NCBI GenBank assembly: GCA_964354755.1
Contig: CAYHBA010000005.1
Span: forward strand, 13,014-77,013
Direction: 5' to 3'
DNA: 64,000 nucleotides
Source of the DNA: an uncultured Thermoplasmata archaeon
GTDB lineage: Archaea; Thermoplasmatota; Thermoplasmata; SG8-5
How positions within the stretch are numbered: position 1 is the first letter of the stretch; each line of letters starts with the position of its first letter. The position numbers and the translations under genes are program-made. Positions 44,179-64,000 of the stretch are shown piece after piece. Under the pieces are notes generated by a model. The model saw only the letters and a list, made by a program, of their open reading frames with translations, was not told the DNA's origin and did not search any database.

Positions 44179-44634
44179 ATGGCTGACGATTATGTGTCCA
44201 ACCTGACAGCCAGGTTCCGGGGCATTGCCAAAGCCATAACCGAGGACAAGCAGGCGAAGGTCTACATGGAAGTCCCCAGGGAATCGCTGCTGAAGGTCGT
44301 GGAGATACTGAAGAACGAATTTGACGGATACCACATCTCGACGATAACGGTTCTCGACTCGGGTGAAAGGTTCGAACTCCTGTACCACATGCCGATCGGC
44401 CCAAGGCTCCTGAGCCTGAGGGTATTCCTGCCGAAGGGCGACCCGACGATCGATACTCTCACAAGGATACTGCCTGGCGCCATCCTTTACGAGAGGGAGC
44501 TGCACGACATCATGGGCATCCAGGTCAAGAATCACCCTGACATGCGCCGGCTTTTACTTCCGGATTCCTGGGGCGACAAGGGCTACCCGCTTAGGAAGGA
44601 CTGGGCGGATCCAAGGAAGAAGGAGGTGAAGTGA
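44179..44634 (+). CDS. NuoC-like (30 kDa) subunit (MbhK-like)
   Basis: ATG at 44179 with SD aaggagag. ERELHDIMGIQVKNHPD matches the NuoC signature. Confidence 0.8.
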   Translation: MADDYVSNLTARFRGIAKAITEDKQAKVYMEVPRESLLKVVEILKNEFDGYHISTITVLDSGERFELLYHMPIGPRLLSLRVFLPKGDPTIDTLTRILPGAILYERELHDIMGIQVKNHPDMRRLLLPDSWGDKGYPLRKDWADPRKKEVK

Positions 44635-46792: not shown

Positions 46793-47133
46793 TGAAGAGG
46801 CCAGGAGTGATGATAAAGGATGCGTTGGGGCGCTTGGGCAAGAAGCCTGTCACATCGAAATACCCGTACGAGAAATCGCCTGCTGAGCCCGGATACCGCG
46901 GCGTGATGCAGTTCCACGTGGACCTGTGCATCAGCTGCGGGATGTGCGCGAAGGACTGCCCGTCCTTCGCCTGCGTGATGGAGACGATAGACGGCAAGAA
47001 GCGGCCCGTCTTCTACCTGGACAGGTGCATGTTCTGCGCCCAGTGCGAGGAGTCCTGCCCCAAGGACGCGATAAAGATGACGCAGGAATACGAGCTTGCC
47101 CATCTGGCCGGAAACCAGCCCATCGTGAAGTAA
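46792..47133 (+). CDS. 2x[4Fe-4S] ferredoxin-like subunit (NuoI/MbhN-like)
   Basis: ATG at 46792 overlaps the NuoH-like stop. Two C-x2-C-x2-C-x3-CP motifs (CISCGMCAKDCP; CMFCAQCEESCP). Confidence 0.85.
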   Translation: MKRPGVMIKDALGRLGKKPVTSKYPYEKSPAEPGYRGVMQFHVDLCISCGMCAKDCPSFACVMETIDGKKRPVFYLDRCMFCAQCEESCPKDAIKMTQEYELAHLAGNQPIVK

Positions 47134-47135
47134 AC

Positions 47136-47606
47136 ATGAGCTTCGCCGAACGCCTGACAAAAGCCCTCGAGGGTGCATCGAAAGTGGTGGTGGTCGGCAT
47201 GGGCAATGAGCTGAACGGCGACGACGGGTTCGGCGTCCATGTCGCGAAAGCACTTGGGAATTACAGGAATGTAATCAGCATCCAAGCTCATACAGTCCCG
47301 GAAAATTTCATCTCCAAAATAGCCTCCGAGAAACCCAGCCATGTGATTTTCATTGATGCTGCAATCCTCGATACTCCCCCCGGAACAATGGAACTCCTTG
47401 AGACTCAGGATCTGGCCAGGGTCAAAATCCTTACCCATCGCATGCCGCTTCCGAAGCTGATTGAGAGGCTGAAGGAGACCCACAAGGCCAAGGTCTTGAT
47501 AGTCGCCATGCAACCGAAGGGGATGGAAGTCGGAACCCCGCTGTCCCCAGAGGCCAGTTCGGCCGCAAGGGAATTGATAAGTCTATTCAGGAAGAACTTC
47601 TCATAA
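47136..47606 (+). CDS. Hydrogenase maturation endopeptidase (HycI/HybD family)
   Basis: ATG at 47136, 3 nt after the ferredoxin-subunit stop. VVVGMGNELNGDDGFGVHVAKAL and FIDAA are hallmark motifs of [NiFe]-hydrogenase C-terminal processing proteases. Confidence 0.8.
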   Translation: MSFAERLTKALEGASKVVVVGMGNELNGDDGFGVHVAKALGNYRNVISIQAHTVPENFISKIASEKPSHVIFIDAAILDTPPGTMELLETQDLARVKILTHRMPLPKLIERLKETHKAKVLIVAMQPKGMEVGTPLSPEASSAARELISLFRKNFS

Positions 47607-47652: not shown

Positions 47653-48711
47653 GTGAAATATATGAATATCATGGATGACGAGTTCAACCTCAGACTTCTG
47701 AGGCTCCTGGTTTCCGGCGGGGGTGTGCGGGTGAACATCAATGCCCTGGCGAAGGAACTTAATATGCACCGGACCACAATAAAGAATCGTCTGGACTTTC
47801 TCTTTAAAGAAGGCCTTCTGGACAGACCCAGATATCCTTTCATTCACCTGTTCCAGGAATATCCCCTGCTCATACTGGCACTTGCCGACATCCCCCGGAC
47901 ACCACAGGCCAGGCACTTCTTCGAGGAGGATTCGCACATTTTTGCGGCGTACGCATGCAGGGAAGGGGCATACAACACCTTGCTCATCGAGTTCTTCAGG
48001 GACATCGAATCGTACCATTCCTGGCGCGAGAAAATCGTGCTCGAAGAGAAGCTGCCAAAGAGGGAGAGCCGCGCCACCGCGGACGTGTTCTTCTTCAGCA
48101 ACAGGCTCTGCTTCAAGTACAATCCTGCATGCTTCTTCACCGAGATAGGCGGGCTGATTGCCAGGGGCGGGACTGCCCGGCTGAAGGGCGCCTCGCTTGA
48201 TAAGACGGATTTCCTCATCATGAGCAATCTCTCGAACGGAAGGAGTCTCTACCCGAACGAGACCTTTCTCGCTGCCCAGCTGGATACGAACCGCAAGAAG
48301 GTTCAGAGGAGGATATCTGTCCTGCTCGAGAATAAGATAATTGACACGCCCAAATGTTATTTTCCGGACCTGCTCACTCCTCCAGGCTACAACATGGTGA
48401 TTACGCTTCTCGAAATTAAAGCCAAGAAAAGCCAGATAAAGCAGGATATCATGAACAACAACTACATTCCCAGGGCTTTGGAGAGCAGCACCGGAAGATA
48501 CAACACGCTCCTGTTCTCGTCATTCCCGACCATTGACGATTTCTTCGAATGGTCGGAAAATCTGGCGGATACGTACCCGGACAGCATCGGGGCCATGTCA
48601 AATTTCATTCTTTCCTCGAAGCCCAGGCATGCGATAAATCCGCAAAAAGTCTCTGTCGGGCTGATTGAAAAGAAACTGTGGGAATCCAAAACAGGAATTC
48701 GTACAGAATGA
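47653..48711 (+). CDS. Tandem (duplicated) Lrp/AsnC-family-like transcriptional regulator
   Basis: 352 aa. Two HTH_AsnC-like modules (DEFNLRLLRLLVSGGGVRVNINALAKELNMHRTTIKNRL and DKTDFLIMSNLSNGRSLYPNETFLAAQLDTNRKKVQRRI), each followed by an RAM-like domain. Confidence 0.6.
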   Translation: MKYMNIMDDEFNLRLLRLLVSGGGVRVNINALAKELNMHRTTIKNRLDFLFKEGLLDRPRYPFIHLFQEYPLLILALADIPRTPQARHFFEEDSHIFAAYACREGAYNTLLIEFFRDIESYHSWREKIVLEEKLPKRESRATADVFFFSNRLCFKYNPACFFTEIGGLIARGGTARLKGASLDKTDFLIMSNLSNGRSLYPNETFLAAQLDTNRKKVQRRISVLLENKIIDTPKCYFPDLLTPPGYNMVITLLEIKAKKSQIKQDIMNNNYIPRALESSTGRYNTLLFSSFPTIDDFFEWSENLADTYPDSIGAMSNFILSSKPRHAINPQKVSVGLIEKKLWESKTGIRTE

Positions 48712-48795
48712 TATGTTTTCTTATTATTTTCATCCCTAATTGTATGTTATTTACTGCCAGAAAATGCTATATCATTAAATACAGAAGTGTATTTT

Positions 48796-48814
48796 CCTGA
48801 TTTAGGAAATCAGG
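48796..48814. promoter_or_regulatory. Palindrome cctgattt-agg-aaatcagg immediately upstream of the gdh start and overlapping its SD
   Basis: 8-bp perfect arms, 9 nt upstream of ATG 48823. An AT-rich TATA-like stretch (tatatcattaaata) lies further upstream. Confidence 0.3.
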
Positions 48815-48822
48815 TGGCCGAT

Positions 48823-50106
48823 ATGGACAAAGGATTCAACGCATTCACAATGGCACAGGAACAATTCGACAAGATTGCGGAGCAACTTGAACTGGACCAA
48901 GCGACAAAGGAACTGCTGAGGACTCCAATGAGGGAGTATCATTTCTCGATACCTGTAAAGATGGACGACGGCACGACCAGGATATTCAGGGGCTTCAGGA
49001 TGCAGCACAACGATGCCAGGGGCCCGTGCAAAGGCGGAATACGCTTCCATCCTCAGGAAACAGGCGATACCGTAAAGGCACTTTCTATGTGGATGACCTG
49101 GAAGTGCGCAGTCGCTGACATACCCCTAGGCGGAGGCAAGGGCGGAGTGATTTGCGACCCCCACAACCTTTCCCTGAGGGAACAGGAGGCAATATGCCGG
49201 GGATGGGTAAGGCAGATATACCGGAATATCGGCCCTCAGGCCGACGTCCCGGCGCCGGATGTGATGACGAACAGCCAACATATGCTTTGGATGCTTGACG
49301 AGTACGAGAAATTGACAGGCGGCAGATACCCCGGGTTCATCACAGGAAAACCCGTGGGGATGGGCGGCTCTTTGGGCAGGACCGAGGCCACGGGATATGC
49401 GGCAGTGTTTGCGCTCAGAGAGGCATGCAAGGATCTCGAACTCGACATTGGCAAATCCACAGCATCCATCCAGGGTTTCGGGAATGTGGGCCAGTATGTC
49501 ATTGAAATGTACATCAAGTACGGCGGGACAGTGAAGGCCATATCTTGCTGGGACCAGAAGGAGAGCAAGGCCTACACATTCCTTAAGGCCGACGGCATAG
49601 GCCTTAAGGAACTCAGAGACATAACAGACAAGTTCGGATCCATAGACAAAAAGAAGGCCAAGGAGCTTGGCTACGACATTCAGGAAGGTCACGTATGGGC
49701 TGAGCAGGAAGTCGACATACTCATCCCGGCAGCATTGGAAAATTCAATCACCGAGGACGTGGCTGAGAAGATTCCCTCTAGCGTCAAGATATTATTGGAG
49801 GGTGCAAACGGTCCGACCACTCCCGAAGCTGACAAGATACTCAACATGAACAAGATCATGGTCATACCCGACTTCCTGGCGAACTCGGGCGGTGTTGTCT
49901 GCAGCTACTTCGAGCAGGTCCAGTCGAACATGAACTACTTCTGGCCCAAGGACGAGGTCCTCGGCAAGCTCGACGACAAGATGACACAGGCTTTCTACTC
50001 GGTGCTCGAGCTGTCCAAGAAGAAGAAATGTTCTCTCAGGGATGCGGCGTACATGATCGCCATCTCGCGGGTCGCGGAAGCCTGCCACCTGCGCGGCTGG
50101 GTCTGA
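48823..50106 (+). CDS. gdh: Glutamate dehydrogenase (archaeal/hexameric short type)
   Basis: ATG at 48823; the track start is a GTG. Glu/Leu/Phe/Val dehydrogenase signature [11 protein letters not shown], the GGGKGG catalytic-Lys region, and the NAD(P) fold GFGNVG. Confidence 0.85.
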   Translation: MDKGFNAFTMAQEQFDKIAEQLELDQATKELLRTPMREYHFSIPVKMDDGTTRIFRGFRMQHNDARGPCKGGIRFHPQETGDTVKALSMWMTWKCAVADIPLGGGKGGVICDPHNLSLREQEAICRGWVRQIYRNIGPQADVPAPDVMTNSQHMLWMLDEYEKLTGGRYPGFITGKPVGMGGSLGRTEATGYAAVFALREACKDLELDIGKSTASIQGFGNVGQYVIEMYIKYGGTVKAISCWDQKESKAYTFLKADGIGLKELRDITDKFGSIDKKKAKELGYDIQEGHVWAEQEVDILIPAALENSITEDVAEKIPSSVKILLEGANGPTTPEADKILNMNKIMVIPDFLANSGGVVCSYFEQVQSNMNYFWPKDEVLGKLDDKMTQAFYSVLELSKKKKCSLRDAAYMIAISRVAEACHLRGWV

Positions 50107-50113: not shown

Positions 50114-53059
50114 ATGCCACAGAAGCCTCAGGGCGAAAACGGCATAGCCAAACTGATCGGCGACATAGTCGGAAGGCGGTTGGACCAGTCCCCGCAGTCT
50201 CAGGTGCCCCCTTACAGAATAAACAATGTACTGGTGATTTCCACCGATTATGACTATTTCATTCTGGACGAGGAAGGCCGGCTGAGGAATCTCATAGTCC
50301 AGCAGTGCAGGAAGGAGGAGCGGACATCCGTTCCAGCCCTGACACATGCCACCGAGGAGAAGGCCGGCGAGGTCCTGAAGGCGGCGAAGTTTGACGCAGC
50401 CATCCTGTTCAATACTCCCACCAAGTCCGACATCATGGAACTGGCGAAGTCTGTTAAAGCGGTACAGGACATCCCGGTCGTGCTTGTCGGGAGAAGCGCC
50501 TCCGATATGACGAGAACCGCGAAAAGTTATAGCCAATCCCCAATAGACCACATGTTCACCTGGTCCGGCGACGGCAAGGTGTTCCTCGACATCATCCAGT
50601 TCCTGGAGGATTCCGAGCCCGAATCAGAGCCCCAAAGGCGGGCGATTCTTCTCGCTGACAGCCAGCCGCAGTATTATTCAAGGCTGGTTTACGAGGCCTA
50701 TAAAGTGGTTTCCGAGCACATGGCTGCGGTCGTGCCGGAGGACCTGATCCACAGCCAGAGAACCTCGAGGATGAGGAAGCGGCCCCGCGTGATCTTGGCC
50801 AAGACAAGCAAGGAACTGGGCGACATCTACCAGAGGAACAAACACTCAGTGTCCTGCATGATAATCGACATGAATATGGAGCAGCCAGAGACCGAATTGG
50901 CAGCATTCATATTAAAATTGCCGAAGTCGGGACCGCAGGTGCCAGTAATCCTGCTTTCATGCGCGAAGCATGACAGGTTCAGATGCCTGGATAAAAATTC
51001 TCCGGCATTCTTCACGGAATGCTCACGCTTCATTGCAGATGCCATAGGCCCGACACGCCTTTCGTTCAGGGATTCAGCCGGGACCGAGATTGCGTCCGTG
51101 TCTTCGCCCAAGGAGCTGGAGGCTGCCATGTGGAGCCTGCCCGCCGAGTCATTCGATCGGCACATGGACAATGGCGACGTGGCGAGATGGCTGGACGTGC
51201 TAATGGAGTCCGAGCTTTCCGAAAGGATCCGCAGACTCGTCAAATCCACGGGCGACATAGAGGAGCTTAGGAACAAGGCCATCAGTGCCATTTCGGAGCA
51301 CAGGAAAGCGGTCCAGAAGGGCGTGATAACGACTTACTCGAGGGGAGAAAACGAGCAGTCCAGGTTCAGCCGGATCGGCAAGGGCGCGATGGGCGGCAAA
51401 GCCCGCGGCCTGGCTTTCGCTGACAAGCTCATAAGCACCTACCTCGGGGAGGGCACGGTGCCCGGCATCAGCGTCAGGATTCCGAGGACCATTGTCCTCT
51501 GCTCGGACATATTCGACCAGTTCATCGAGGACAACGGCATCGACATAGAGGACCTGAGCCATCATTCGGACGAGAGAATAGCCCAGAAATTCATGGAAGG
51601 CGACCTTCCTGCGCCGGTGCTTGGGGACATCCGGGCATTCATTCGCGGGACCAAGGCGCCGATAGTTGTCAGGTCGTCCAGCCTCCTCGAGGACGCACTG
51701 CACCACCCGTTCGCCGGCGTTTACGCTTCACTTCTGCTTCCGAACGAATCATGGGAGACTGACATCCGGTTCCAGGAGCTCTGCGCTTCAGTGAAGTATG
51801 TCTTTGCGTCTGTATTCTTCCAGAAAGCAAGAACCTACATGGCTTCCCTAAAGGACATAAGGGAGGATGAGAAGATGGCCGTTGTCGTCCAAGAACTGGT
51901 CGGCTCAAAGCACGGCTCGATTTTCTATCCAACAACTTCAGGCGTGGCCAAGTCATACGATTATTACCCATCGGGAAGGTGCAAGGCCACGGACGGTGTG
52001 GTGAACATCGCCCTGGGTCTGGGGAAGGAAGTGGTGGACGGCGGAACCGCCTACAGGTTCTGCCCAGTACATCCGAAGACGCCGAAACACGGGACTCTCG
52101 AAAACCTTCTTGAGCATGCCCAGAAAGATTTCTTCGCTGTTGACCTGAATTCCTATGTGAACATAGTCCAGAGGAACGAGGACAGCACCATCAAGCATTT
52201 TCCCATATCTGTCGCTGAATCTCATGGTTCCTTGGAACAGGTTGCTTCGACCTACGAGCGTGAGGAGGGGCGTCTCTACCCCGGCACGGGAAGGGACGGA
52301 ATCAGGGTGCTTGACTTCGCGCCCCTGATAATTCTTGAGACCTATCCGGTAGCTAAACTGCTTCATACCCTACTGCGCGTGAACGAGCTGGCAGTGGGCT
52401 CGCCCGTAGAGATTGAATTTGCCATGGACATACCGTCGGAATCCAGCCAGCAACCGGATTTCTATGTGCTTCAGGTCAGAAGCATGCGCTCGACTGAGCA
52501 GGATTTCGACATCGAGCTGGGAACCCACGCCCCCGATGAAATTTTCTGCCATGCTATGCATGCGATGGGAAACGGCGTCATTTTGGGAATTCGGGACATA
52601 GTTTATGTCAAACGCGGGAATTACGACATTGCGGACAACCAGAAGATCATTCCGCAGATTCGCGTCATGAATGAAAAGATGTTGAAAGGCCGCACACCCT
52701 ACATTCTTGTAGGTCCTGGGAGATGGGGCTCTACGGACCCGTGGCTGGGCATACCGGTGAACTGGAGCGACATTGCCGGTGCAAGGCTGATAGTGGAGAC
52801 GCCAATAGAGGAAAGACCCGTGGATCCGTCGCAAGGCTCGCATTTCTTCCACAACATGGTGGCTGCCCGGACAGGGTATCTGACCATAATCCCAGGCACC
52901 GAGAGCTCGATAGACTGGGAGTGGCTCGAGGGCATCGGACCGGTCGAGGAGGAACAGCACATCATGCACGTTCGCCTGCCCGAACCGGTGGAAATCCGAA
53001 TCAACGGCGGAAGGGGCGAGGGCGTAATATTGAAAAAAGCAAAACCAGGAGCTGAGTGA
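50114..53059 (+). CDS. PEP-synthase-like phosphotransferase paralog 1: receiver-like domain, receiver-like domain, PPDK_N ATP-grasp domain, substrate domain, diverged phosphohistidine swivel domain (no PEP/pyruvate TIM barrel)
   Basis: 981 aa. GGKARGLAF and IVVRSSSLLEDALHHPFAGVYAS match PF01326 nucleotide-binding motifs. The C-terminal YILVGPGRWGSTDPW...ARLIVETP...GSHFFHN parallels the PEP-utilisers motif DILV..TDPDW...GIVTE.GG.TSHAAI. The two N-terminal domains have a REC-like fold. Confidence 0.8.
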   Translation: MPQKPQGENGIAKLIGDIVGRRLDQSPQSQVPPYRINNVLVISTDYDYFILDEEGRLRNLIVQQCRKEERTSVPALTHATEEKAGEVLKAAKFDAAILFNTPTKSDIMELAKSVKAVQDIPVVLVGRSASDMTRTAKSYSQSPIDHMFTWSGDGKVFLDIIQFLEDSEPESEPQRRAILLADSQPQYYSRLVYEAYKVVSEHMAAVVPEDLIHSQRTSRMRKRPRVILAKTSKELGDIYQRNKHSVSCMIIDMNMEQPETELAAFILKLPKSGPQVPVILLSCAKHDRFRCLDKNSPAFFTECSRFIADAIGPTRLSFRDSAGTEIASVSSPKELEAAMWSLPAESFDRHMDNGDVARWLDVLMESELSERIRRLVKSTGDIEELRNKAISAISEHRKAVQKGVITTYSRGENEQSRFSRIGKGAMGGKARGLAFADKLISTYLGEGTVPGISVRIPRTIVLCSDIFDQFIEDNGIDIEDLSHHSDERIAQKFMEGDLPAPVLGDIRAFIRGTKAPIVVRSSSLLEDALHHPFAGVYASLLLPNESWETDIRFQELCASVKYVFASVFFQKARTYMASLKDIREDEKMAVVVQELVGSKHGSIFYPTTSGVAKSYDYYPSGRCKATDGVVNIALGLGKEVVDGGTAYRFCPVHPKTPKHGTLENLLEHAQKDFFAVDLNSYVNIVQRNEDSTIKHFPISVAESHGSLEQVASTYEREEGRLYPGTGRDGIRVLDFAPLIILETYPVAKLLHTLLRVNELAVGSPVEIEFAMDIPSESSQQPDFYVLQVRSMRSTEQDFDIELGTHAPDEIFCHAMHAMGNGVILGIRDIVYVKRGNYDIADNQKIIPQIRVMNEKMLKGRTPYILVGPGRWGSTDPWLGIPVNWSDIAGARLIVETPIEERPVDPSQGSHFFHNMVAARTGYLTIIPGTESSIDWEWLEGIGPVEEEQHIMHVRLPEPVEIRINGGRGEGVILKKAKPGAE

Positions 53060-53060
53060 T

Positions 53061-56000
53061 ATGAGCGAGAAGGAGCAGCAGACCGCGGACACGACCAAGA
53101 TACTGCAGGAAAGATTGAAGGAACTCAACTGCATTTACGGAATATCAACATTGATACAGGACGAGTCCATCGACCTTGAAGGAACCCTTGAGAAGTCCAT
53201 GGTTCTGATTCAAAATGCATGGCAGTATCCGGATATCACATGCGTCAGGATAATTTCCGGAGACAAGACTTTCGCGACCACCAATTTCAAGGAGACGGAG
53301 TGGAAGCAATCAGCCCCCATATCGTACCGCAGGAAGAGGATAGGCGCGGTCGAGATTTATTACCTCGTGTACAAGGAAACCGCAGACGAGGGCCCGTTCC
53401 TTCGGGAAGAAAGAAGGCTGCTTAATGCGGTCGCGGACCTCCTTTCAACTTATATCGAAAAGCAGGACATCAACATAAAGCTGAACGGATTCGAGACCAA
53501 GGAGAAACCAATCGACAAAAACGACTGGGAAATAATACTCGAGCTTCTGGTGAAGACCGATCCGAGGGGCGCGCTGCGCATCACAAGGCGAATGATATAC
53601 TACCTTTACAGGATTCAGAACGAGGAGATCACCGGAATCCTGGCCAAAGTGTGTCCGATAGATGGTAAAGCAGACGAGTGGTGTGGCATCAATATACCCA
53701 ATCCGAAAGAGGACGCGCAGGAGCTTCAGAGAGTTCAGAGAAAGGTCTTCGAGATAGCCAAAAGAGCCATCCCCAAGGAGGAAATATCTGATCTCTTCCA
53801 GACCTGGCTGAAATCCGACAAGGGCCGTCCGCTTCTTATAGCCTCCCAGAAGCAAGGCATATCGCTGGGCGAGATAACCAGCGAAATAAACAGGTATTGG
53901 GACATTCCCGAGGATGCTAGGGTGCTTATGCCCGAGGACGAGCGAGCGATAAGCGCGGGCCTCATCCGCCGGTTCTTCTCCGGGCGTCTGAACTACCTGA
54001 ATGTGGCAAAGGACTACATTCACCTGGACGATTTTGTTGACCTCACAAAGCGCATTGTCGGCCCCTCCCAGGGAGAAGGGAAACTGGGTGGCAAGAGCTC
54101 GGGCCTGTACCTCGCCCACAAGATTGTGGAGGTCGAGAAGAAGCGGGTGAAGGACCTTGAGAACATTAAAACTCCGAAGAGTTGGTATCTCACCTCCGAT
54201 TCGATGATGCACCTGATACGCTACAACGACCTTGACGACCTGATAAATATAAAATATCTCGACCCGAACGAGATACGCCAAGAACATGCGTTCCTGGAAC
54301 AGCTTTTCAAGAACTCCGTGTTCCCGCCGGACATAATCTCCGGGCTGAGGAGCGTCCTGCTGGACGCAGGGGACCATCCGATAATCGTGAGGTCTTCGAG
54401 CCTTCTCGAGGACAGCTTCGAGGCTGCATTCTCAGGCAAGTATAAGAGCCTGTTCCTTGTGAACACTGGTACGCTCGAGGAGAGGCTGAGCAACCTGATG
54501 AACGCCATAGCGGAAATTTACGCATCCGTATTCGCCCCCTCGCCCCTGGAATACAGGAGGGAGCGCGGCCTTCTCGAGTTCTCAGAGGAGATGAGTATTC
54601 TGATACAGGAGGTGGTCGGCACCAGGATAGGCCCATACTTCCTCCCGGTTTATGCGGGTGTATCGCTTTGCAACAACGAGTTCAGCTGGTCCCCGCGGAT
54701 ACGCAGGGAGGACGGCATGGTCAGGCTCGTTTCCGGGCTGGGCACCAGGGCAGTGGACCGCGTTGGGGACGATTACCCCGTGCTCATGGCTCCGTTCAGG
54801 CCCGAGATACGCGTCAACAGGCTGATCGACGAGGCCATACAGTACTCCCAACGCTATATCGACGTGATAAATGTCGAGAAGCGAACCTTGGAGACAGTCG
54901 ACAGCACTGAACTCCTTACGAAATACTGGGACGAGTACCCAATGGTTCACCAGATGATATCCTTACACAAGGAGGGAATGCTCCAGCCAGCCAGGAGCGT
55001 CCTGATAGATTCCGAAGGCGCAGACATGGTCATCACCTTCGACAAGATGATAGAAAAGACAGAGTTTGTCCCGCAGATCAAAGCCCTCCTTACAATTCTG
55101 AAGAACAAGCTCGAGACACCAGTTGACATTGAGTTCGCCTATGACGGCAAGAACCTTTACCTGCTCCAATGCAGGCCCCAGCACCAGGCCTTGGAGGTCG
55201 ACAGGGTCCCTGTCCCCAAGAACATTGCCCCCAACAGGAAGCTGTTCTCAGCGAACAAGTATATCACGACCAGCCACCTGGAAAACATCGAGTACCTGGT
55301 TTACGTCGACCCGAACGAGTACAGCGACCTCAAGGACCGCAACCAGATGCTGGACGTCGCCAAGGCCGTGGGTATATTGAACAAGCAGCTTCCGAAGAGG
55401 CGCTTCATCCTGATGGGCCCGGGCAGGTGGGGCAGCAGGGGCGACATCAAGCTGGGCGTCCCGGTCCAGTATTCGGACATCAACAACACCTCGCTTCTGA
55501 TAGAGATAGCCAGGCAAAGAGGCGGGTATCAGCCGGACCTGTCGTTCGGGACTCATTTCTTCCAGGACCTGGTCGAGGCGGACATCCATTACATGCCGCT
55601 GTATCCCGACGAGACTGGCAACCTTCTCAACGAGGAATTCATATCCATGGCACCGAACAGGCTTGCTGAGCTTGTTCCGAAATACAAGGCTCTTGAGCAT
55701 GTGATAAAGGTGGTGCGGATATCCGATGTGGAGGACGGCGGCACCATGACTGTGGTCATGGACGGCGAAGCGAACCTGGCGCTTGCTTACACTGTTCCTG
55801 CGGACCATTGGATATGGCGTGTCAGGAAGGCCGAGGAGATTGGGATGGCGCTCGACACCGAGCTTTACGGTGTCGAGGCAATGTATCTGATTGGCAGCTC
55901 CAAGGACGGCACTGCCAGGGCAGCCAGCGATCTTGACCTGGTGATTCATGCGAAGGGGTCCCAGGACCAGACCGAATCCCTCTTGCGTTGGCTCAAAGGA

Positions 56001-56183
56001 TGGGATGAGAAACTCGCGGCTGAGAACCGCGAGCGCACAGGCGCGGATACCACAGAGATACTGGATGTACACATTGTCACCGACGAGGATATTGCCGCGA
56101 AATCGTCATGGGCCGCCCACATAGGCAATCCCTACAACCCTGCGAGGGAGATAAGGTTAAGGAAGCCAGCTACCGATGAGTGA
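53061..56183 (+). CDS. PEP-synthase-like phosphotransferase paralog 2: GAF-like sensor, PPDK_N ATP-grasp domain, substrate domain, swivel domain, C-terminal minimal nucleotidyltransferase (Pol-beta superfamily)
   Basis: 1040 aa. The N-terminus resembles an archaeal GAF sensor (LKELNCIYGISTL...QYPDITCVRII...). PPDK_N motifs GGKSSGLYLA and IIVRSSSLLEDSFEAAFSGKY. C-terminal swivel block FILMGPGRWGSRGD...GTHFFQD. The final ~120 aa carry an MNT motif YLIGSSKDGTARAASDLDLVIHA. Confidence 0.8.
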   Translation: MSEKEQQTADTTKILQERLKELNCIYGISTLIQDESIDLEGTLEKSMVLIQNAWQYPDITCVRIISGDKTFATTNFKETEWKQSAPISYRRKRIGAVEIYYLVYKETADEGPFLREERRLLNAVADLLSTYIEKQDINIKLNGFETKEKPIDKNDWEIILELLVKTDPRGALRITRRMIYYLYRIQNEEITGILAKVCPIDGKADEWCGINIPNPKEDAQELQRVQRKVFEIAKRAIPKEEISDLFQTWLKSDKGRPLLIASQKQGISLGEITSEINRYWDIPEDARVLMPEDERAISAGLIRRFFSGRLNYLNVAKDYIHLDDFVDLTKRIVGPSQGEGKLGGKSSGLYLAHKIVEVEKKRVKDLENIKTPKSWYLTSDSMMHLIRYNDLDDLINIKYLDPNEIRQEHAFLEQLFKNSVFPPDIISGLRSVLLDAGDHPIIVRSSSLLEDSFEAAFSGKYKSLFLVNTGTLEERLSNLMNAIAEIYASVFAPSPLEYRRERGLLEFSEEMSILIQEVVGTRIGPYFLPVYAGVSLCNNEFSWSPRIRREDGMVRLVSGLGTRAVDRVGDDYPVLMAPFRPEIRVNRLIDEAIQYSQRYIDVINVEKRTLETVDSTELLTKYWDEYPMVHQMISLHKEGMLQPARSVLIDSEGADMVITFDKMIEKTEFVPQIKALLTILKNKLETPVDIEFAYDGKNLYLLQCRPQHQALEVDRVPVPKNIAPNRKLFSANKYITTSHLENIEYLVYVDPNEYSDLKDRNQMLDVAKAVGILNKQLPKRRFILMGPGRWGSRGDIKLGVPVQYSDINNTSLLIEIARQRGGYQPDLSFGTHFFQDLVEADIHYMPLYPDETGNLLNEEFISMAPNRLAELVPKYKALEHVIKVVRISDVEDGGTMTVVMDGEANLALAYTVPADHWIWRVRKAEEIGMALDTELYGVEAMYLIGSSKDGTARAASDLDLVIHAKGSQDQTESLLRWLKGWDEKLAAENRERTGADTTEILDVHIVTDEDIAAKSSWAAHIGNPYNPAREIRLRKPATDE

Positions 56184-57114
56184 CGACTTCCCTCGTTGCA
56201 TTGTCCAGGTTGTCGGTGCTGAACCTCACAACGGCCAGCCCCGGACCGTCATGCGAACCACCGAAGGAATGTGACTTCCCGAGTCTCACCCTCCAGTCCC
56301 CGGTCAGCCTAACAGACTCATGTATATGGCCATGCAGTGTAAGGAGGGGAGAAGTTTTTTCTATGAATCTCCTGATGGCAATGCTGCCGACATGGATATC
56401 GGCGGGGGCATGGTCTACGAACTTGCCGTCATTGGCCGTCCTGTCCAGGGGAGTGTCGGAAGGCGGGGCATGGAACAGGTAGACTGTGCTACCAGGGTCG
56501 GATAGCTTGGCCAGTTCAACCAGGTCCTTTTCAATCGTGGAGTATCTCGCATCCTCGGGCGTGACCTCGACGGTTCTTATGCCCTCCTCTGGAGAGACGC
56601 AGCCCACGCCCGTGAACCTTGAAACATCGTATTTCTCCCAGTCCTTTAAAAGGAAAGGCGAGGGCGGAACGAAGGAATAGCCGACAACGCTCAGGCCTCC
56701 GAAGGTGACGCACTTTTGCTGGACATATTCAATAAGCCCGTCATTTGCCATTCTCTCGAGCATGGGCTCGTGAACCCTTGGGTCGTCATTGCCCGGTATA
56801 ATGAAGAAACGTGTTCTCCCGCAAGTTTCCCTGACTTTCCTGATGCGCTGGGACATCCGGCTCAGGAATTCCCCGATGTCGCCTGACCTGCCATATCCGC
56901 CAGGCAGGAGGTCTCCGCCAATGAGGACCCAGTCGGGGCACTCAGTCTCCGCAATGGAGAACAGGATGTCATACCTATCAGGCTTCCCGTGAAGGTCTGT
57001 GACGAAAATGCAGTTCATGCCCGTCATGGATTTCCTCTGTAAGTTCAACTGCCCGTCATACAAATATTTTTGCTTTTTCCTGTATTTTGGCATCAGGTGT
57101 GGAAACAAGGGCAT
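56170..57114 (-). CDS. Calcineurin-like metallophosphoesterase
   Basis: 314 aa. Motifs DLHG, GDLL, GNDD and GHIH. The real start is probably the internal ATG (MNCIFVTDLHG, ~57018). The tail overlaps the paralog-2 stop by 14 nt (convergent). Confidence 0.75.
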   Translation of the reverse strand: MPLFPHLMPKYRKKQKYLYDGQLNLQRKSMTGMNCIFVTDLHGKPDRYDILFSIAETECPDWVLIGGDLLPGGYGRSGDIGEFLSRMSQRIRKVRETCGRTRFFIIPGNDDPRVHEPMLERMANDGLIEYVQQKCVTFGGLSVVGYSFVPPSPFLLKDWEKYDVSRFTGVGCVSPEEGIRTVEVTPEDARYSTIEKDLVELAKLSDPGSTVYLFHAPPSDTPLDRTANDGKFVDHAPADIHVGSIAIRRFIEKTSPLLTLHGHIHESVRLTGDWRVRLGKSHSFGGSHDGPGLAVVRFSTDNLDNATREVVTHR

Positions 57115-57212
57115 TATGTTCGATACATCTCAAGAAAACAGTATAAGCGTTAAAATACTTGAAAACTTATCCCGCCGCATCGCGGGCAACTGCGAGTAAG
57201 AGGAGGAATTAA

Positions 57213-58556
<1,344 letters not shown>

Positions 58557-58582
58557 TCCAGACCAGCATTCCAAGAAACCTC

Positions 58583-58615
58583 AATCCCTGGCCTTTCGAG
58601 ATCAGGGATTCTTTT
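58583..58615 (+). terminator. Hairpin plus T tract between convergent gdhA and PEPS-like paralog 3
   Basis: aatccctg-(12 nt loop)-cagggatt followed by cttttcatttt. Confidence 0.5.
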
Positions 58616-58619
58616 CATT

Positions 58620-61586
58620 TTATTCTTGTTTTCTTGTTATACAGCCAAGACCGGTCCTGCCGTCGACCTTCACCTCTAGCTCGAACGGGAGCTCTACATG
58701 GGTAACATGACCCACCTTTTTCCTCTTTCCGGCTTTCTCCAGCCAATCCCAGTCTATCGATGCATCGTCCGAGCCATGTGGAATGGTGAAATACATTATC
58801 CCGAGTGAGGTGATGTTGTGGAAAAAATGCGTGCCGTGAGATGGATCGATCCTGTACCCCTCCAGGCCCACCTCCACCATTGCCCTGGCCCAGGAAATCT
58901 GTTTCCAATCCACAGGTATCCCCAGGAACCTGTCCCTTGTACCCCATCGTCCCGGGCCGATGAGCAGATAGGGCCTGTCCATGCCGTCGTTGACCTCCCC
59001 GATATCCCTGGCCAAGTCAGCGGTCTTTGTATTGTCGAATTCCGAAGGGCTGATATAAACCACATCCCTGATTCCCCTGAGCACGCCATTGCCGAGCGCT
59101 TTGGATGAATAGGCGAAGGCTCCCTGTCTGTCATCCTCCGACACGGTCACGCTTGCCTTTTCCCTCATGGTCAGAAGGGGGCGAATCTGGAGCACATTGA
59201 ACTCGGGTTTTCCCGCGCAGTCCAGCCTCAGCGCGAATTCCATCTCAATCGGCGAGCCCATTCCGACAGTGCCGAAATCCAGGAGACTGTCAATGACACC
59301 GGGCAGAGGCAGCAATCCGTATTTCAGGACACCGGAGAATGTCACCACTCTGGGGCCGTCAGCGCCAACTCCTTCCCTAATCCTGCCGTCAGCCGGGTCG
59401 TATGTGCTTGCCACATAATTCAGCGTGCCATCCTCCTCCGCGTCTGACACCTGCAGTCTGAGAAGGGTGGAATCGTCGCCTTTTATCAGGTCGTAATCGG
59501 ATGTGGCCATGTCAAGGCAGTAGAAGTAACTCTGCGTGTTCTTGATAATGTCATTCGGCGTGGAGAATCCCGGGGTTATGCCAGGATTCTTCGGTGAGAA
59601 TGCCAGGACCCTCCCGCCCTCCACGACAGTCTTGCCGAGCCCCAGCGCCACGCTCGCTATCCCGTCCTCCCGTTTCAGGGGCGCGACAGGATAGAAATTG
59701 TATGACTGGGCGACACCGGAGAAAATCGGGTAGAATCTGTCCCCGTATCTGTTGCCGACCATCTTCTGGAGAACGATGGCCATCTTCTCCTCCTCGGTTG
59801 TATGCACTGTGTTCTGGATGTAAGCCTTGGCCGATGCCAGAAACGCCGAGGCATAGACAAGTTTGATTGCGTCCAGGAGACGCACGAGCCTTGCATCGTT
59901 CCCAGTTTCGTTGTTGGGCAGCATGAATGTCGAGTAAATACCGGCGAAAGGCTGATTCTGGCTGTCCTCCAGCAGGCTTGAGGAGCGGACGGCCAGCGGC
60001 TCCCTGACATGCCTGATATATTCTCCCAGTGCCTTGAGGATGTCATCGGGCATCTTGCCCTTGAGGAAAATTTTCTTGATGCTGATGTCGTCCGGTTTCT
60101 TGGAAATTGCCTCGCTCAGCTTGTTTTCCTCGATGAACCTGTCGAATATATCGGTTCCCATTACCAGTGTGTCAGGGATGCGGACACGGCATTCTGGTAT
60201 TGTCTCGTCGATGTTCTTCTGGGCGAACAGGGCGAACAGGAATGCCAGACCCCTGCCCTTGCCCCCGAGCGAGCCGCCGCCCAGCCTGGTGAATGTTTCT
60301 TCCACTTCGAAATTCTGCTGCCAGAAATCTGTAATCATGCCCCGCCTTTTGGCCCGGTCCAGTTCCCTGAATGTGGCGGCCAGGTACCTTCTGATGTCCT
60401 CGTCGTCCTTGAAGTCAGAAACTTTCTTGGGTCTGAGCTTCAGGGCCATTCCTATCTCGCCCCTTGCCATAAGCCAGTTCGAGAAATGGTTGGCTCCAGC
60501 ATGGTATTTCAATGACTCTGCCGGCACCTTGTCTAGGAGAGTGAGGAATTCAGCCATGTCCCCGGCGCTGCCAATGATTGCGCCTGCAGGGGTTCTGAAA
60601 ACGAAATCGCCGAACCCCAGCGATTCCTTGAAGAACCTCCTCAGGTCGTGCATGAGCTTGTCCGAATGCTTTCCTATGAACTTGACGCCGAGGCTCTCAG
60701 CCTTGGCTCTGTGGGCATCGTCCGAGGACTGCACCAGGATGGGGATGCCCTCGTCCAGGCTCTTCACCAGCTCGAAACCTGCCAGTTCCAGTTCCTCGCC
60801 GTTCCTCGTATATGTCACGTCGGTGATGACGCCAAGGATGTTCTCCCGATACATGTTGTACTTCTCGACCGCCTCCTCATAGGTTTCGGCGAGCACTATC
60901 TTCGGTCTGGCTCTTTTCCTGTAGGTTTTCTCCTGCTCGTTCAGGCTGTCGGAGATGAGGTCATGCGTCTGGAGCATGATCTCCCTGTAAACTATAGGGA
61001 GGAACATCGAGTAATATTTCGGCGAGTCCTCTACCAGCAACAGCACCCGCACGAAGGCGTCCCTCGTGTCCGCCTTCACATTCATGAGGTCTTCGACGAA
61101 TTTGGTTATGGCAAAGAACAGGGCCGAGTCGCCGTTCCAATAGAATATCTTGTCAATCTCATCGCGTTTGTCGGGTATGCTGTAGATCGGAATCTCTGCC
61201 GTATCCGTGAGAAGCAGAATTACTGGAATACTAGGCTGAATGGCCTTTGCCTCCCTCCCGAACTCAAACGGGTTCCTGTCCGTGACCCTGGGCATAGTGA
61301 TGATCATGTCGTAATGTTTCTGCACGAGCGCCTCCAATGCGAGCCTGCAGTTGTCCACCCTCGTAACGGTGGGCGGGGAGGAAGAGATGGACATGGCCTT
61401 GTACTCGCCCGAAATACGGTCTGAGAGCAGCCCCTCCTCCTCAAGGATGAAAGCGTCATACAGGCTGGAGACCAGCAGTATGTCATAGACCCTGCGCTTC
61501 ATGAGGTCTGAAAGCCCGCGCCTGAAATCGCCGTTCTGGCTGTTGTCGTTGAGGTTGGTTTTCTTTGCCTTGCCGCGAGGTTCCAT
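58620..61586 (-). CDS. PEP-synthase-like phosphotransferase paralog 3: receiver-like domain, canonical receiver domain, PPDK_N ATP-grasp domain, substrate domain, swivel domain
   Basis: 988 aa. REC2 has canonical phospho-acceptor geometry (VLLLVEDSP..., ILGVITDVTY, PILVQSS). PPDK_N motifs GGKGRGLAF and LAVRSSSLLEDSQNQPFAGIYSTF. Swivel-like YLLIGPGRWGTRDRFLGIPV...GTHFFHN. Confidence 0.8.
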   Translation of the reverse strand: MEPRGKAKKTNLNDNSQNGDFRRGLSDLMKRRVYDILLVSSLYDAFILEEEGLLSDRISGEYKAMSISSSPPTVTRVDNCRLALEALVQKHYDMIITMPRVTDRNPFEFGREAKAIQPSIPVILLLTDTAEIPIYSIPDKRDEIDKIFYWNGDSALFFAITKFVEDLMNVKADTRDAFVRVLLLVEDSPKYYSMFLPIVYREIMLQTHDLISDSLNEQEKTYRKRARPKIVLAETYEEAVEKYNMYRENILGVITDVTYTRNGEELELAGFELVKSLDEGIPILVQSSDDAHRAKAESLGVKFIGKHSDKLMHDLRRFFKESLGFGDFVFRTPAGAIIGSAGDMAEFLTLLDKVPAESLKYHAGANHFSNWLMARGEIGMALKLRPKKVSDFKDDEDIRRYLAATFRELDRAKRRGMITDFWQQNFEVEETFTRLGGGSLGGKGRGLAFLFALFAQKNIDETIPECRVRIPDTLVMGTDIFDRFIEENKLSEAISKKPDDISIKKIFLKGKMPDDILKALGEYIRHVREPLAVRSSSLLEDSQNQPFAGIYSTFMLPNNETGNDARLVRLLDAIKLVYASAFLASAKAYIQNTVHTTEEEKMAIVLQKMVGNRYGDRFYPIFSGVAQSYNFYPVAPLKREDGIASVALGLGKTVVEGGRVLAFSPKNPGITPGFSTPNDIIKNTQSYFYCLDMATSDYDLIKGDDSTLLRLQVSDAEEDGTLNYVASTYDPADGRIREGVGADGPRVVTFSGVLKYGLLPLPGVIDSLLDFGTVGMGSPIEMEFALRLDCAGKPEFNVLQIRPLLTMREKASVTVSEDDRQGAFAYSSKALGNGVLRGIRDVVYISPSEFDNTKTADLARDIGEVNDGMDRPYLLIGPGRWGTRDRFLGIPVDWKQISWARAMVEVGLEGYRIDPSHGTHFFHNITSLGIMYFTIPHGSDDASIDWDWLEKAGKRKKVGHVTHVELPFELEVKVDGRTGLGCITRKQE

Positions 61587-61733: not shown

Positions 61734-63239
61734 CTATTTCTTCGGCATCTCGCAGGTCATGTCCCCGGGCAGGGCCTCAGGCTTCGGAATGATTTTGGGG
61801 ATGCCCAATAATTTCTCGTGGATGTCCATGGCAGATTTCTTTCCTGCGCCCATGGCCTCGATTACCGTGGCCATGCCTGTGACTATGTCCCCGCCTGCCC
61901 AAACCATGTCTTTCTTCGTCTTCCCCCACTCATCCGCCGCGATATAGCCCCATTTGTTGAGCTCGAGCCCCGGAGTCGACCTTGTAAGCAGCGGATTGGC
62001 CCCTGCGCCGATGGCGTTGATGACTAGGTCGCAGTCGATGACATACTCGGAATCCGGGATGGGCACGGGCCTGCGCCTGCCGGACTCATCCGGTTCCCCC
62101 AGTTCCATCCTCGAGCACTTGAGCCCCTTCACCATGTTGTTCTCGTTGCCCAAAACCTCGACTGGATTGGTGAGGAGGCACATCTTCACCCCCTCCTCCT
62201 CCGCATGGTGGATCTCCTCTATTCTGGCCGGCATCTCCTCCCTGCTCCTGCGGTACACGACAGAGACGTCGCCGCCCAGTCTGAGCGCAGTCCTGGCCGA
62301 GTCCATGGCCACGTTTCCCCCGCCTATGACGCAGACCTTCTTCCCCTTGACGATGGGCGTGTCATACTCAGGGAACCTGTAGGCCTTCATCAGGTTGCTC
62401 CTTGTGAGATACTCGTTGGCCGAGTACATGCCCCCGAAATTCTCCCCAGGGATTCCCAGGAACTTAGGCAGCCCGGCGCCGACGCCTATGAAAACTGCGT
62501 GGAAGCCCCTCTCGTTCAGCAGCTCGTCGATCGATACAGTCCTGCCGACTATCTCGTTGAGCTTCAGCTTCACGCCCAACTTTACCAGATAGTCAACTTC
62601 CTTCTCCACGATGGCCTTCGGGAGCCTGAATTCCGGAATGCCGTACATCAGCACGCCGCCCGGCTTGTGGAAGGCCTCGAAGATAGTTACATCATAACCG
62701 AGAAGGACCATGTCCCCGGCCACTGTAAGGCCGGAAGGTCCCGAGCCCACAATGGCAATCTTTTTTCCGTTGGGCGCAGCCTTTTTGGGGAGCTGGATGA
62801 GATCGTTCTCCCTCTCGTAATCCGCTGCGAATCTCTCCAGTCTGCCTATTGCCACTGCTCTGCCCATCTTGTTAAGCACGCAGTGCTGCTCGCACTGCGT
62901 CTCTTGGGGACAGACCCTTCCGCAAATGGCCGGGAGTGCGTTTGTTTCCTTGATTTTCCTGGCCGCTTCTGCATATTTCCTCTCGGTTATCAATTTGATG
63001 AAGCCCGGGATGTTTATGTTGACAGGGCAGCCGCAGACACATGAGGGAACCTTGCACTGGAGGCATCGCCCGGCCTCCTCCCTGGCCATCTCATCTGTAT
63101 AACCCAGTGGAACCTCCAGGAAGTTGGTTGCGCGGACCTTCGGGTCCTGCTCGGGCATCGGGACTCTGTCCTTCCTGCGCGGTTTCTTCTCGGTCATTGC
63201 TTCACCCCGTGTTCCTCGACGTACTTCTGGAGAGAGCAT
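61734..63239 (-). CDS. Glutamate synthase small-chain-like NAD(P)H oxidoreductase (GltD / SudA / NfnB family)
   Basis: 501 aa. Two Fe-S Cys clusters (CLQCKVPSCVCGCPVNINIP; CGRVCPQETQCEQHCV), then FAD/NAD Rossmann motifs (IAIVGSGPSG, VCVIGGGNVAMD). The start may be the internal ATG at ~63197 (MTEKKPRRK), abutting the upstream partner's stop. Confidence 0.85.
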   Translation of the reverse strand: MLSPEVRRGTRGEAMTEKKPRRKDRVPMPEQDPKVRATNFLEVPLGYTDEMAREEAGRCLQCKVPSCVCGCPVNINIPGFIKLITERKYAEAARKIKETNALPAICGRVCPQETQCEQHCVLNKMGRAVAIGRLERFAADYERENDLIQLPKKAAPNGKKIAIVGSGPSGLTVAGDMVLLGYDVTIFEAFHKPGGVLMYGIPEFRLPKAIVEKEVDYLVKLGVKLKLNEIVGRTVSIDELLNERGFHAVFIGVGAGLPKFLGIPGENFGGMYSANEYLTRSNLMKAYRFPEYDTPIVKGKKVCVIGGGNVAMDSARTALRLGGDVSVVYRRSREEMPARIEEIHHAEEEGVKMCLLTNPVEVLGNENNMVKGLKCSRMELGEPDESGRRRPVPIPDSEYVIDCDLVINAIGAGANPLLTRSTPGLELNKWGYIAADEWGKTKKDMVWAGGDIVTGMATVIEAMGAGKKSAMDIHEKLLGIPKIIPKPEALPGDMTCEMPKK

Positions 63240-64000
63240 TTCTCCTCTGCAAGGTAGATCCTCTGTCTCGAAGTGAGGAGGTTCCAGTCAACCTGATGCC
63301 CGTCGAACTCCGGCCCATCCACGCAAGTGAATTTCGTTTTTCCGTCGATATTCACCCTGCAGCCGCCGCACATGCCTGTGGCGTCTATCATTATCGAATT
63401 GAGGCTGACTATGGTCTTTACACCGAATGGCTTGGTGGTCAGGGAACAGAACTTCATCATGGGGACCGGTCCGATGGCGTATACGATGTCCACTTTTTCC
63501 CTCTCGCAAACCTCCTTCAGGGGCTCGGTGACCAGGCCCTTCCTTGCGAACGTTCCGTCGTCAGTGGTGATTATGTGCTCGTCGCAAACTGTGGCAATCT
63601 TGCCCTGCCAGAACAGCAGGTTCTTCGACCTCGCGCCCTGTATACATATAACCTTGTTTCCAGCCACCTTCATCTCCCTGGCTATGGGATATATCGGCGC
63701 CGTGCCCACGCCGCCCGCCACCAGCACGACGGTCCCGTACTTCTTTATCTCGGATGCATGGCCAAGTGGGCCTACCAATGCGTAGTAGGACTGGCCCGCC
63801 TTCATCGCCGCAAGCTTGTAAGTTGATGTCCCGACTGCCATGAATACGATGGTGACGGTTCCTTTATCCCTGTCAAAATCAGCGATTGTCAGCGGGACGC
63901 GCTCGCCCTTCTCGTCCGGCATGACCACCAGGAACTCCCCGGCCTTCGCCTTCTTAGCAATCTCGGGCGCCTCGATTACGGCTTCGTAAATCGTGGGCAC
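63194..64000 (-). CDS. Ferredoxin-NADP reductase-like partner subunit (NfnA / SudB / PyrK-like: FAD-binding plus 2Fe-2S); N-terminus at or beyond the window edge
   Basis: 268 aa visible. FAD/NAD fold (VVLVAGGVGTAPIYPIA), C-terminal 2Fe-2S Cys cluster (CGGCRVNIDGKTKFTCVDGPEF). The track start is a GTG at the last window codon, so the gene is probably truncated by the window. Confidence 0.75.
   Translation of the reverse strand: MPTIYEAVIEAPEIAKKAKAGEFLVVMPDEKGERVPLTIADFDRDKGTVTIVFMAVGTSTYKLAAMKAGQSYYALVGPLGHASEIKKYGTVVLVAGGVGTAPIYPIAREMKVAGNKVICIQGARSKNLLFWQGKIATVCDEHIITTDDGTFARKGLVTEPLKEVCEREKVDIVYAIGPVPMMKFCSLTTKPFGVKTIVSLNSIMIDATGMCGGCRVNIDGKTKFTCVDGPEFDGHQVDWNLLTSRQRIYLAEEKCSLQKYVEEHGVKQ

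Follow-up and report, generated by a model that had tools for sequence, protein, structure and literature searches.

What do three paralogous proteins with a phosphoenolpyruvate (PEP) synthase-like core do beside two glutamate dehydrogenases (GDHs)? The question is raised by a 64,000-nucleotide stretch of a contig from an uncultured Thermoplasmata archaeon (CAYHBA010000005.1; hereafter the window). The window encodes Par1 (50114-53059, + strand, 981 aa), Par2 (53061-56183, +, 1040 aa) and Par3 (58620-61586, -, 988 aa), together with GDH1 (48787-50106, +), GDH2 (57213-58556, +) and a calcineurin-like metallophosphoesterase (56170-57114, -, 314 aa). The original prediction for this locus gave coordinates for the three Par genes that an open reading frame (ORF) check found to be exact. 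Pfam and PDB matches confirmed the phosphoesterase and the two GDHs of differing type that it had also named.

We find that the Par proteins belong to a family whose dominant conserved neighbour is GDH. Functional coupling of the family to GDH is very probable, and the partnership is isoform-specific and previously unreported. Opinion is evenly balanced on the broader proposal that Par1-3 are members of a large, uncharacterised family of phosphotransfer enzymes of the dikinase type, which are gated by signals and act together with GDH.

Genomic linkage to glutamate dehydrogenase

We compared the C-terminal domains of the three window proteins with 1.84 billion representatives and identified 2,124 clusters (50% identity) at E<=1e-3, 1,554 of them at E<=1e-10. 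Among the proteins checked, this domain is always found at or near the C-terminus, C-terminal to a PPDK_N ATP-grasp domain, and never without PPDK_N. Family members occur as core-only proteins (~580 aa), DUF5752-core proteins (~720-770 aa), proteins with two receiver (REC) domains before the core (REC-REC-core, ~1,000 aa), Par2-type proteins (~1,065 aa) and PAR-PAR fusions (~1,500-1,650 aa). At least 599 genome matches were confirmed among GTDB species-representative genomes. The top homologues come from metagenome-assembled genomes (MAGs) of Thermoplasmatota, in keeping with an archaeal window, and the family extends to Heimdallarchaeota, Bacteroidota (including the cultured Mariniphaga and Carboxylicivirga), Desulfobacterales, Cloacimonadota, Planctomycetota, Acidobacteriota, Spirochaetes, Gemmatimonadota, Ignavibacteria and others.

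Neighbourhoods were counted at 80 loci from more than 15 phyla, drawn from the 599 or more genome matches, and GDH was sought by tblastn in the fetched DNA. A GDH gene lies within 10 kb of the Par gene in 33 of the 80 loci and within 400 bp in 28, in all relative orientations (binomial P <=1e-28 under generous assumptions). The linked lineages include Thermoplasmatota, Heimdallarchaeota, Bacteroidota, Planctomycetota, Cloacimonadota, Spirochaetes, Gemmatimonadota and Chromatiales, among others. Unbiased clustering of neighbouring ORFs recovered GDH in 30 loci; the runner-up family appeared in 9. This dominance of a single neighbour across phyla strongly supports the suggestion, made in the original prediction, of an uncharacterised signal-regulated system tied to glutamate or nitrogen.

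The association also distinguishes between GDH types. Par2-type genes stand beside a GDH1-type gene in 8 of 8 loci, accompanied by the phosphoesterase wherever the flank was available, and Par3-type genes pair with GDH2-type genes. Par3 orthologues from four further archaeal genomes each converge directly on a GdhA-type GDH, and their remaining neighbours differ; this convergent Par3/GDH2 pairing is found in loci L002, L005-L008 and L091. The gene set of the window is found again in locus L091, a relative with 96% identity. The six-gene module recurs in rearranged form in L091 and in MAGs of Thermoplasmatales (L040), Bacteroidota (L073 and L086) and Chromatiales (L078). Two loci (L039 and L057) have a core-only protein of 581-588 aa encoded between GDH1 and Par2.

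Several observations weigh against a GDH-directed function. First, GDH is absent from the fetched DNA in 47 of the 80 loci, including 10 of the 11 from Desulfobacterales. Second, a search of the long family members found no GDH-PAR fusion; these proteins are PAR-PAR fusions or carry N-terminal extensions instead. Finally, that the genes lie side by side does not make GDH the substrate.

Other recurrent neighbours also touch on the glutamate/2-oxoglutarate node, among them GltD-like and NuoF-like genes in about 10 loci. Eight Bacteroidales loci (L022, L034, L047, L056, L058, L062, L070 and L079) contain tandem paralogues without an adjacent GDH. In the same eight loci, the paralogue pairs lie beside genes for two further enzymes of this node, a glutamate racemase and a 2-oxoacid:ferredoxin oxidoreductase of KorAB-like type, an arrangement that probably reflects lineage synteny rather than functional linkage.

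Some long or divided family members were seen. Four proteins of 1,484-1,654 aa (P0361, P0362, P0363 and P0390) each contain two PPDK_N and two C-terminal matches. In these, the tandem paralogues often seen in Bacteroidales loci have become a single polypeptide, which hints that the paralogues act as a pair. Two others (P0412 and P0478, ~1,540 aa) have an extra N-terminal extension of ~560 aa without a Pfam match. On one bacterial contig (L001, 5610-8591), the second tandem paralogue is called as three genes (REC, 333 aa; PPDK_N, 420 aa; C-terminal domain, 196 aa), which may reflect long-read assembly frameshifts or a genuinely split enzyme.

The ATP-grasp core and the C-terminal domain

Pfam identifies PPDK_N in Par1, Par2 and Par3 (E 4.9e-36, 6.4e-49 and 3e-40) over model positions ~3-326 of 328, in agreement with the ATP-grasp core of the PEP synthase/pyruvate phosphate dikinase (PPDK) type that had been proposed. 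The domain spans aa 426-797 of Par1, aa 341-712 of Par2 and aa 432-803 of Par3 (59178-60293, -). The three proteins share the motifs GGK, VRSSSLLED, E(I/M)EFA and LQxR, followed in the C-terminal domain by GPGRWG and G(S/T)HFF. When aligned with E. coli PpsA, the ATP-grasp elements GGK, VRSS..ED, FAG, Q.MV, GLG..V, ExEFA and LQxRP all line up. In Par3 these correspond to GGK443, VR534SSS, E781-M-E783-FA and LQ800-I-R802. Across 107 family members from many phyla, K443, R534 and E783 never vary, and Q800 and R/K802 occur wherever a sequence extends over them, so that the catalytic Lys, Arg, Glu and Gln/Arg of PEP synthase and PPDK are all accounted for. Judged by these motifs, the Par ATP-grasp has an intact catalytic site of the dikinase type.

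The rest of the PEP synthase architecture is missing. Neither PEP-utilizers_C (PF02896), the TIM barrel that binds PEP or pyruvate, nor PF00391 has any Pfam match in the three proteins. The polypeptides stop ~185 aa past the ATP-grasp domain, or ~335 aa past it in Par2 owing to an extra domain, so the absence of the barrel that was noted earlier holds. Par proteins resemble PEP synthase and PPDK in having an ATP-grasp followed by a mobile domain and in their ATP-site residues (GGK, VRSS..ED, ExEF and LQxR), but they are sensor-fused, and their putative mobile domain exceeds the canonical one by ~60% in length, contains two insertions and has no sequence similarity to it that could be detected. 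An assignment as true PEP synthase or PPDK was rejected on the absence of the TIM barrel.

Rifampin phosphotransferase (RPH; 5HV1) and the PigC and RedH enzymes also lack this barrel. RPH has a ~430-aa substrate-binding domain between its ATP-grasp and swivel domains, whereas in Par proteins the swivel-like domain directly follows the ATP-grasp. Par proteins further differ from RPH in having no GGxTSH motif and no PF00391 match and in carrying N-terminal REC domains or other sensors. The N-termini of PEP synthase, RPH and PigC/RedH models in NCBIfam match Par proteins partially and far below threshold (24-36 bits against a cut-off of 999 for the RPH and PigC equivalogs). An RPH-like antibiotic kinase was likewise rejected, given the missing substrate domain and scores of ~30 bits against that cut-off. 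The Par family thus lies outside both the PEP synthase/PPDK and RPH families, whose defining features it lacks.

A ~150-aa variable region had been described as a separate middle domain that binds the phosphoryl acceptor, as in RPH. This stretch instead forms part of the unbroken PPDK_N match and exceeds its equivalent in E. coli PpsA by only ~40 aa. Because it belongs to the ATP-grasp, Par proteins have no RPH-like substrate-binding domain, and the acceptor site is elsewhere, probably on another protein.

This result bears on whether Par proteins could be small-molecule dikinases, which would phosphorylate a metabolite or cofactor of the glutamate/2-oxoglutarate node and lie near GDH because they share its pathway. 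The characterised ATP-grasp-plus-swivel enzymes, those of the Enzyme I type excepted, are all known to act on non-protein acceptors, with small or polymeric substrates in the case of RPH, PigC and glucan-water dikinase, and the GltD-like, NuoF-like, oxidoreductase and racemase neighbours described above would fit a metabolic role. A third substrate-binding domain for such a molecule is missing, and the core-only 581-aa forms consist of the ATP-grasp and C-terminal domain alone. The sensors, the paralogues in tandem or fused form and the strict association with a single GDH isoform also look regulatory rather than metabolic. We consider a small-molecule acceptor improbable.

The C-terminal domain occupies aa ~791-981 of Par1 (GPGRWG at 52712-52729 and GSHFF at 52835-52849, +), 55179-55775 (+) of Par2 (GTHFF at 55548-55562) and aa 804-988 of Par3 (58623-59177, -), where the GPGRWG(T) loop lies at 58941-58958 and the codon for His920 at 58827-58829. 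The block is without relatives in Pfam, NCBIfam and the PDB sequences and constitutes a new domain family, missing from current domain databases. Across 123 C-terminal domains, the series G,G,R,W,G ... E ... G,H,F,F ... Y is invariant. Each of the 106 full-length relatives with sequence in this region retains G879-R-W-G882, [ST]883, E905, S916, G918, H920 and F921, and all but one to three retain D885, [ST]919 and Y932. The histidine that had been called invariant from the three window proteins therefore remains so in both alignments. The same set is kept in Par2-type and core-only forms, including the 581-aa proteins.

The predicted model of this 185-aa block is confident (pLDDT 91.6). From the N-terminus it runs through a G.G hairpin, an 'ILV' strand (70-75), a short helix (91-94) and a strand (97-103) to a Gly/Ser loop; then come a helix that starts at the invariant His (117-124), a strand (128-132) and a terminal hairpin ending 'V.VDG..G'. 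This order is collinear with the canonical swivel domain over ~100 aligned residues, apart from two inserted elements, helix 49-64 and the invariant loop GPGRWG(S/T)xD..LGIPV. Structures listed for the model include a Geobacillus pyruvate kinase tail (2e28, 6.5), RPH (5hv1, 6.3), the PPDK carrier domain (2fm4, 6.2), PPDK (1vbg, 5.7) and three Enzyme I entries (5woy, 5.9; 5t12, 5.6; 2wqd, 5.1). Other swivelling beta/beta/alpha folds are interspersed among them (DRTGG, transferrin-receptor and GroEL apical domains, LdcA). The domain also directly follows the ATP-grasp, the same placement as in PEP synthase and PPDK.

A parallel with the phosphohistidine swivel motif of PEP-utilising enzymes had been drawn from the sequence, and it survives at the level of fold, in the element order of the model. 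Sequence, profile and structure searches do not reproduce it and count against a swivel relationship. A Foldseek search of the PDB with the model gave no significant match (best E 0.03, an LD-carboxypeptidase). None of the 123 C-terminal domains matched PF00391 in Pfam at E<=1, the GGxTSH motif of the PEP synthase/PPDK mobile domain is lacking, and the C-terminal profile retrieved only spurious longin-domain matches from PDB sequences. The hhalign probability was <1% both against E. coli PpsA alone and against a PpsA/PtsI-based profile of 120 PF00391 proteins, a negative that is weakened by the profile's low diversity. A regex search of the 80 fetched loci found no canonical GGxTSH protein usable as a local reference. 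At noise level, mafft and hhalign prefer a different, LGIP-anchored register that matches ~65 residues and leaves the canonical His position unconserved. We favour the collinear mapping because it covers ~100 residues as opposed to ~65 and because the alternative register places no conserved His at the critical position. On secondary-structure order, H920 is thus probably equivalent to the phospho-His of PEP synthase, PPDK and RPH, which is His455 in PPDK and His825 in RPH.

The same negative results, the lack of PF00391 similarity and the failed Foldseek search, could be taken to mean that the domain is no phospho-carrier at all. It would then be a ligand-binding or oligomerisation module with the general swivelling beta/beta/alpha fold, comparable to the PEP-utiliser-like tail of Geobacillus pyruvate kinase, which is non-catalytic, and the ATP-grasp would be an ATP/AMP sensor or a ligase that controls GDH allosterically. 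The absolute invariance, in ~230 sequences from many phyla, of a His with the Ser/Thr before it, of a Gly-rich loop and of an Arg and an acidic residue is instead typical of a catalytic centre. Every dikinase ATP-site residue is strictly kept, and the C-terminal domain is always accompanied by PPDK_N among the proteins checked. We regard a non-carrier role as quite improbable. At the step from ATP to His, Par proteins most plausibly work like PEP synthase, PPDK and RPH, and phospho-His chemistry in the family is, in our estimate, slightly favoured.

Sensor regions and a proposed modification switch

Models and conserved residues agree with the description of Par1 and Par3 as carrying two receivers, of which the second is competent and the first degenerate. 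Par1 has the order pseudo-REC, REC, linker, ATP-grasp and C-terminal domain. In Par3, REC1 (61065-61484, -; aa 35-174) is a pseudo-receiver of (beta-alpha)5 fold in which Thr97 occupies the acceptor site; it also has a conserved motif of its own, SSLYDAFxLEE. REC2 (60624-61046, -; aa 181-321) has the same fold, with a long helical insertion (aa 189-225), and retains the full acceptor set of acidic pair (E186/D187), acceptor Asp (D256), Ser/Thr (S287) and Lys (K306). D256, S287 and K306 are invariant in 115 orthologues; Pfam REC scores for the Par proteins are sub-threshold. The linker module that follows (60345-60605, -; aa 328-414) is a beta-hairpin with a helical bundle and is DUF5752-like, as PF19027 matches the equivalent position in three orthologues (P0010, P0042 and P0078).

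Par2 has a ~340-aa N-terminal sensor region in place of these receivers. For the GAF-like sensor that had been proposed here, the GAF (E=0.11) and GAF_3 (E=0.28) matches are sub-threshold and confined to aa 83-133, and four orthologues gave no match. Past its swivel-like domain, Par2 carries a further domain (55776-56180, +; aa ~906-1040) that the original prediction overlooked. It matches NTP_transf_2 (PF01909) with 23.3 bits against a cut-off of 21 and NCBIfam MntA at a sub-threshold E of 3e-4. Pol-beta nucleotidyltransferases are marked by hG[GS]x9-13Dh[DE]h and a third acidic residue; the corresponding GS...DxD...D motifs are present in Par2 and are conserved in seven orthologues from different phyla. 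From these motifs, the domain is a predicted MntA-like Pol-beta nucleotidyltransferase.

A scan of the window's larger ORFs turned up no histidine kinase, a point against the signal-gated scheme that we favour below. A PAS-HisKA-HATPase_c-REC hybrid histidine kinase lies near a PAR gene in ~4 of the 80 loci (for example L051, 11060-13363, -) and is a candidate cognate kinase. This scarcity would also be expected of a self-contained phosphorelay, in which the charged His passes its phosphate to Asp256 of REC2, in cis or in the tandem partner's REC, and the phosphorylated receiver controls GDH by binding; the family would then stand in for a histidine kinase. Such a relay fits the retention of the REC2 acceptor set in nearly all REC-bearing forms, the occurrence of core-only forms next to sensor-bearing paralogues, the PAR-PAR fusions and the full-length model, whose pTM of 0.73 suggests packed domains. 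REC cannot be the universal acceptor, because Par2-type and core-only members without REC keep every catalytic residue, and no swivel-domain His is known to give phosphate to a receiver Asp. A self-contained phosphorelay is thus very improbable in our judgement.

We favour a scheme in which the acceptor is a separate protein, since Par proteins have no acceptor domain in cis and core-only forms exist. The PPDK_N ATP-grasp would bind ATP and (pyro)phosphorylate the invariant C-terminal His (H920 in Par3), as in PEP synthase, PPDK and RPH. The charged domain would then pass the phosphoryl group to another protein in the manner of Enzyme I of the phosphotransferase system (PTS). Gating would come from phosphorylation of REC2 in Par1 and Par3 and from the N-terminal sensor region in Par2. 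In PTS Enzyme I, a phospho-His swivel domain likewise donates to a separate protein, HPr, but that domain is charged by PEP through a TIM barrel and not by an ATP-grasp, and no HPr-like partner of Par proteins was identified. The best acceptor candidate would be the neighbouring GDH or a GDH-bound factor; GDH itself as the direct phosphoryl acceptor is a tentative assignment, and on balance a doubtful one.

For the Par2 branch, the nucleotidyltransferase domain could add a second, nucleotidyl mark, and the linked metallophosphoesterase, a candidate reversing enzyme (phosphatase or phosphodiesterase), could remove the modification. In its fullest form, the module would be a covalent-modification switch in which each GDH isoform has its own sensor-gated "GDH dikinase" acting through a phospho-His swivel, with AMP added to GDH1 by the Par2 nucleotidyltransferase and the phosphoesterase removing the modification. 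We consider this complete switch unlikely.

The closest functional analogy is the control of glutamine synthetase by GlnE and GlnD, where a central enzyme of ammonia assimilation is also paired with large multidomain modifying enzymes. GlnE and GlnD belong to the Pol-beta-type nucleotidyltransferase superfamily. Par proteins share no homology with them beyond this nucleotidyltransferase fold; their target would be GDH rather than glutamine synthetase, and their main module is a dikinase-type ATP-grasp. An anti-phage defence system was also considered and rejected, as PADLOC gave only weak, generic nucleotidyltransferase and phosphoesterase matches to candidate models and the gene context is metabolic.

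A 'Bacteroides-like REC + pyruvate phosphate dikinase' architecture was previously recorded in Heimdallarchaeota without an assigned function (Galperin et al., 2018; PMC5847659). That census describes the architecture alone and gives no C-terminal domain, function or GDH linkage. These regulators probably belong to the same family as the Par proteins, and Heimdallarchaeota and Bacteroidales members are among the loci that we found. Literature searches on PPDK_N with response regulators, DUF5752, Bacteroides GDH inactivation and PEP synthase with GDH returned this architecture and no functional study.

Neighbouring genes and significance

GDH1 is a hexameric GDH of the Pyrococcus/Thermococcus/RocG type (ELFV_dehydrog_N, E 2e-55; ELFV_dehydrog, E 2e-66; best PDB match 1euz, E 1.9e-116). 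It forms a tight co-directional unit with Par1 and Par2, with gaps of 7 nt (GDH1/Par1) and 1 nt (Par1/Par2). The GDH1 ORF (439 aa) opens with GTG, and its L091 orthologue is called at 427 aa; the true start may lie 12 codons further downstream, past window positions 48787-48822. GDH2 is of the E. coli GdhA/C. symbiosum type (Pfam; PDB 5ijz, E 1.6e-175). It sits between the phosphoesterase, whose start is 98 nt away, and Par3, with which it is convergent across a 63-nt gap. The two GDHs had been described as bracketing the cluster; both are present, but GDH1 heads the Par1-Par2 unit and GDH2 lies inside the cluster, before Par3.

The phosphoesterase is convergent with Par2, overlaps it by 14 nt and matches the Metallophos profile PF00149 with 36.6 bits, above the cut-off of 21.5 (E 8.5e-9). 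NCBIfam and PDB sequence searches gave no match that would place it in a subfamily. Orthologues with 43-52% identity adjoin Par2-type genes in six loci (L020, L024, L039, L040, L057 and L073), and another lies beside a Par3-type gene on a short contig (L084).

Directly upstream of GDH1 is a gene for a 352-aa helix-turn-helix (HTH) protein (47653-48711, +) with weak HTH_11, AsnC-type and TrmB-like matches in Pfam and NCBIfam. It is a possible transcriptional regulator whose membership of the module is uncertain; an orthologue with 39% identity lies near Par3, GDH2 and GOGAT genes in L005. Upstream of Par3, on the same strand, are GltD-like (Fer4_20 + Pyr_redox_2) and NfnA/SudB-like genes (61734-64000, -), NAD(P)H/ferredoxin redox partners that we treat as context and not as part of the core module.

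Other features of the surroundings were observed. In L091 (1-9853), a soluble [NiFe]-hydrogenase comes after the GltD-like/NfnA-SudB-like pair and includes a NuoF-GltD fusion subunit of 1,053 aa, a context that suggests NAD(P)H/ferredoxin/H2 redox coupling beside the GDH module. In the window, a Mbh/Mrp-type membrane-bound [NiFe]-hydrogenase module lies just upstream of the HTH-GDH1 genes (40117-47606, +); its parts include two Proton_antipo_M proteins, a Complex1_49kDa/NiFeSe large subunit, an NADHdh subunit and a HycI maturation protease. Farther away, a 766-aa protein (5891-8191, -) combines a bacterial DnaA-type ATPase (PF00308, E 1e-63) with a C-terminal DUF835 (E 6e-27), an unusual fusion on a contig that is otherwise archaeal.

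GDH stands where carbon metabolism and nitrogen metabolism meet, and how anaerobes that use amino acids, by fermentation or assimilation, switch post-translationally between their two GDH isoforms is poorly understood. The GDH of Bacteroides fragilis was reportedly found in 1987 to be reversibly inactivated in vivo, a finding that we do not use as evidence. The Par family offers testable candidates for such control in its catalytic His, receiver Asp, nucleotidyltransferase and phosphoesterase. If the swivel relationship is true, dikinase ATP-grasp/phospho-His chemistry would reach into signal transduction. Should the GDH switch also prove true, the family would provide a GDH counterpart of the GlnE/glutamine synthetase cascade across many anaerobic bacteria and archaea, Bacteroidales included, and would be the first ATP-grasp/phospho-His family to act as protein kinases under two-component control.

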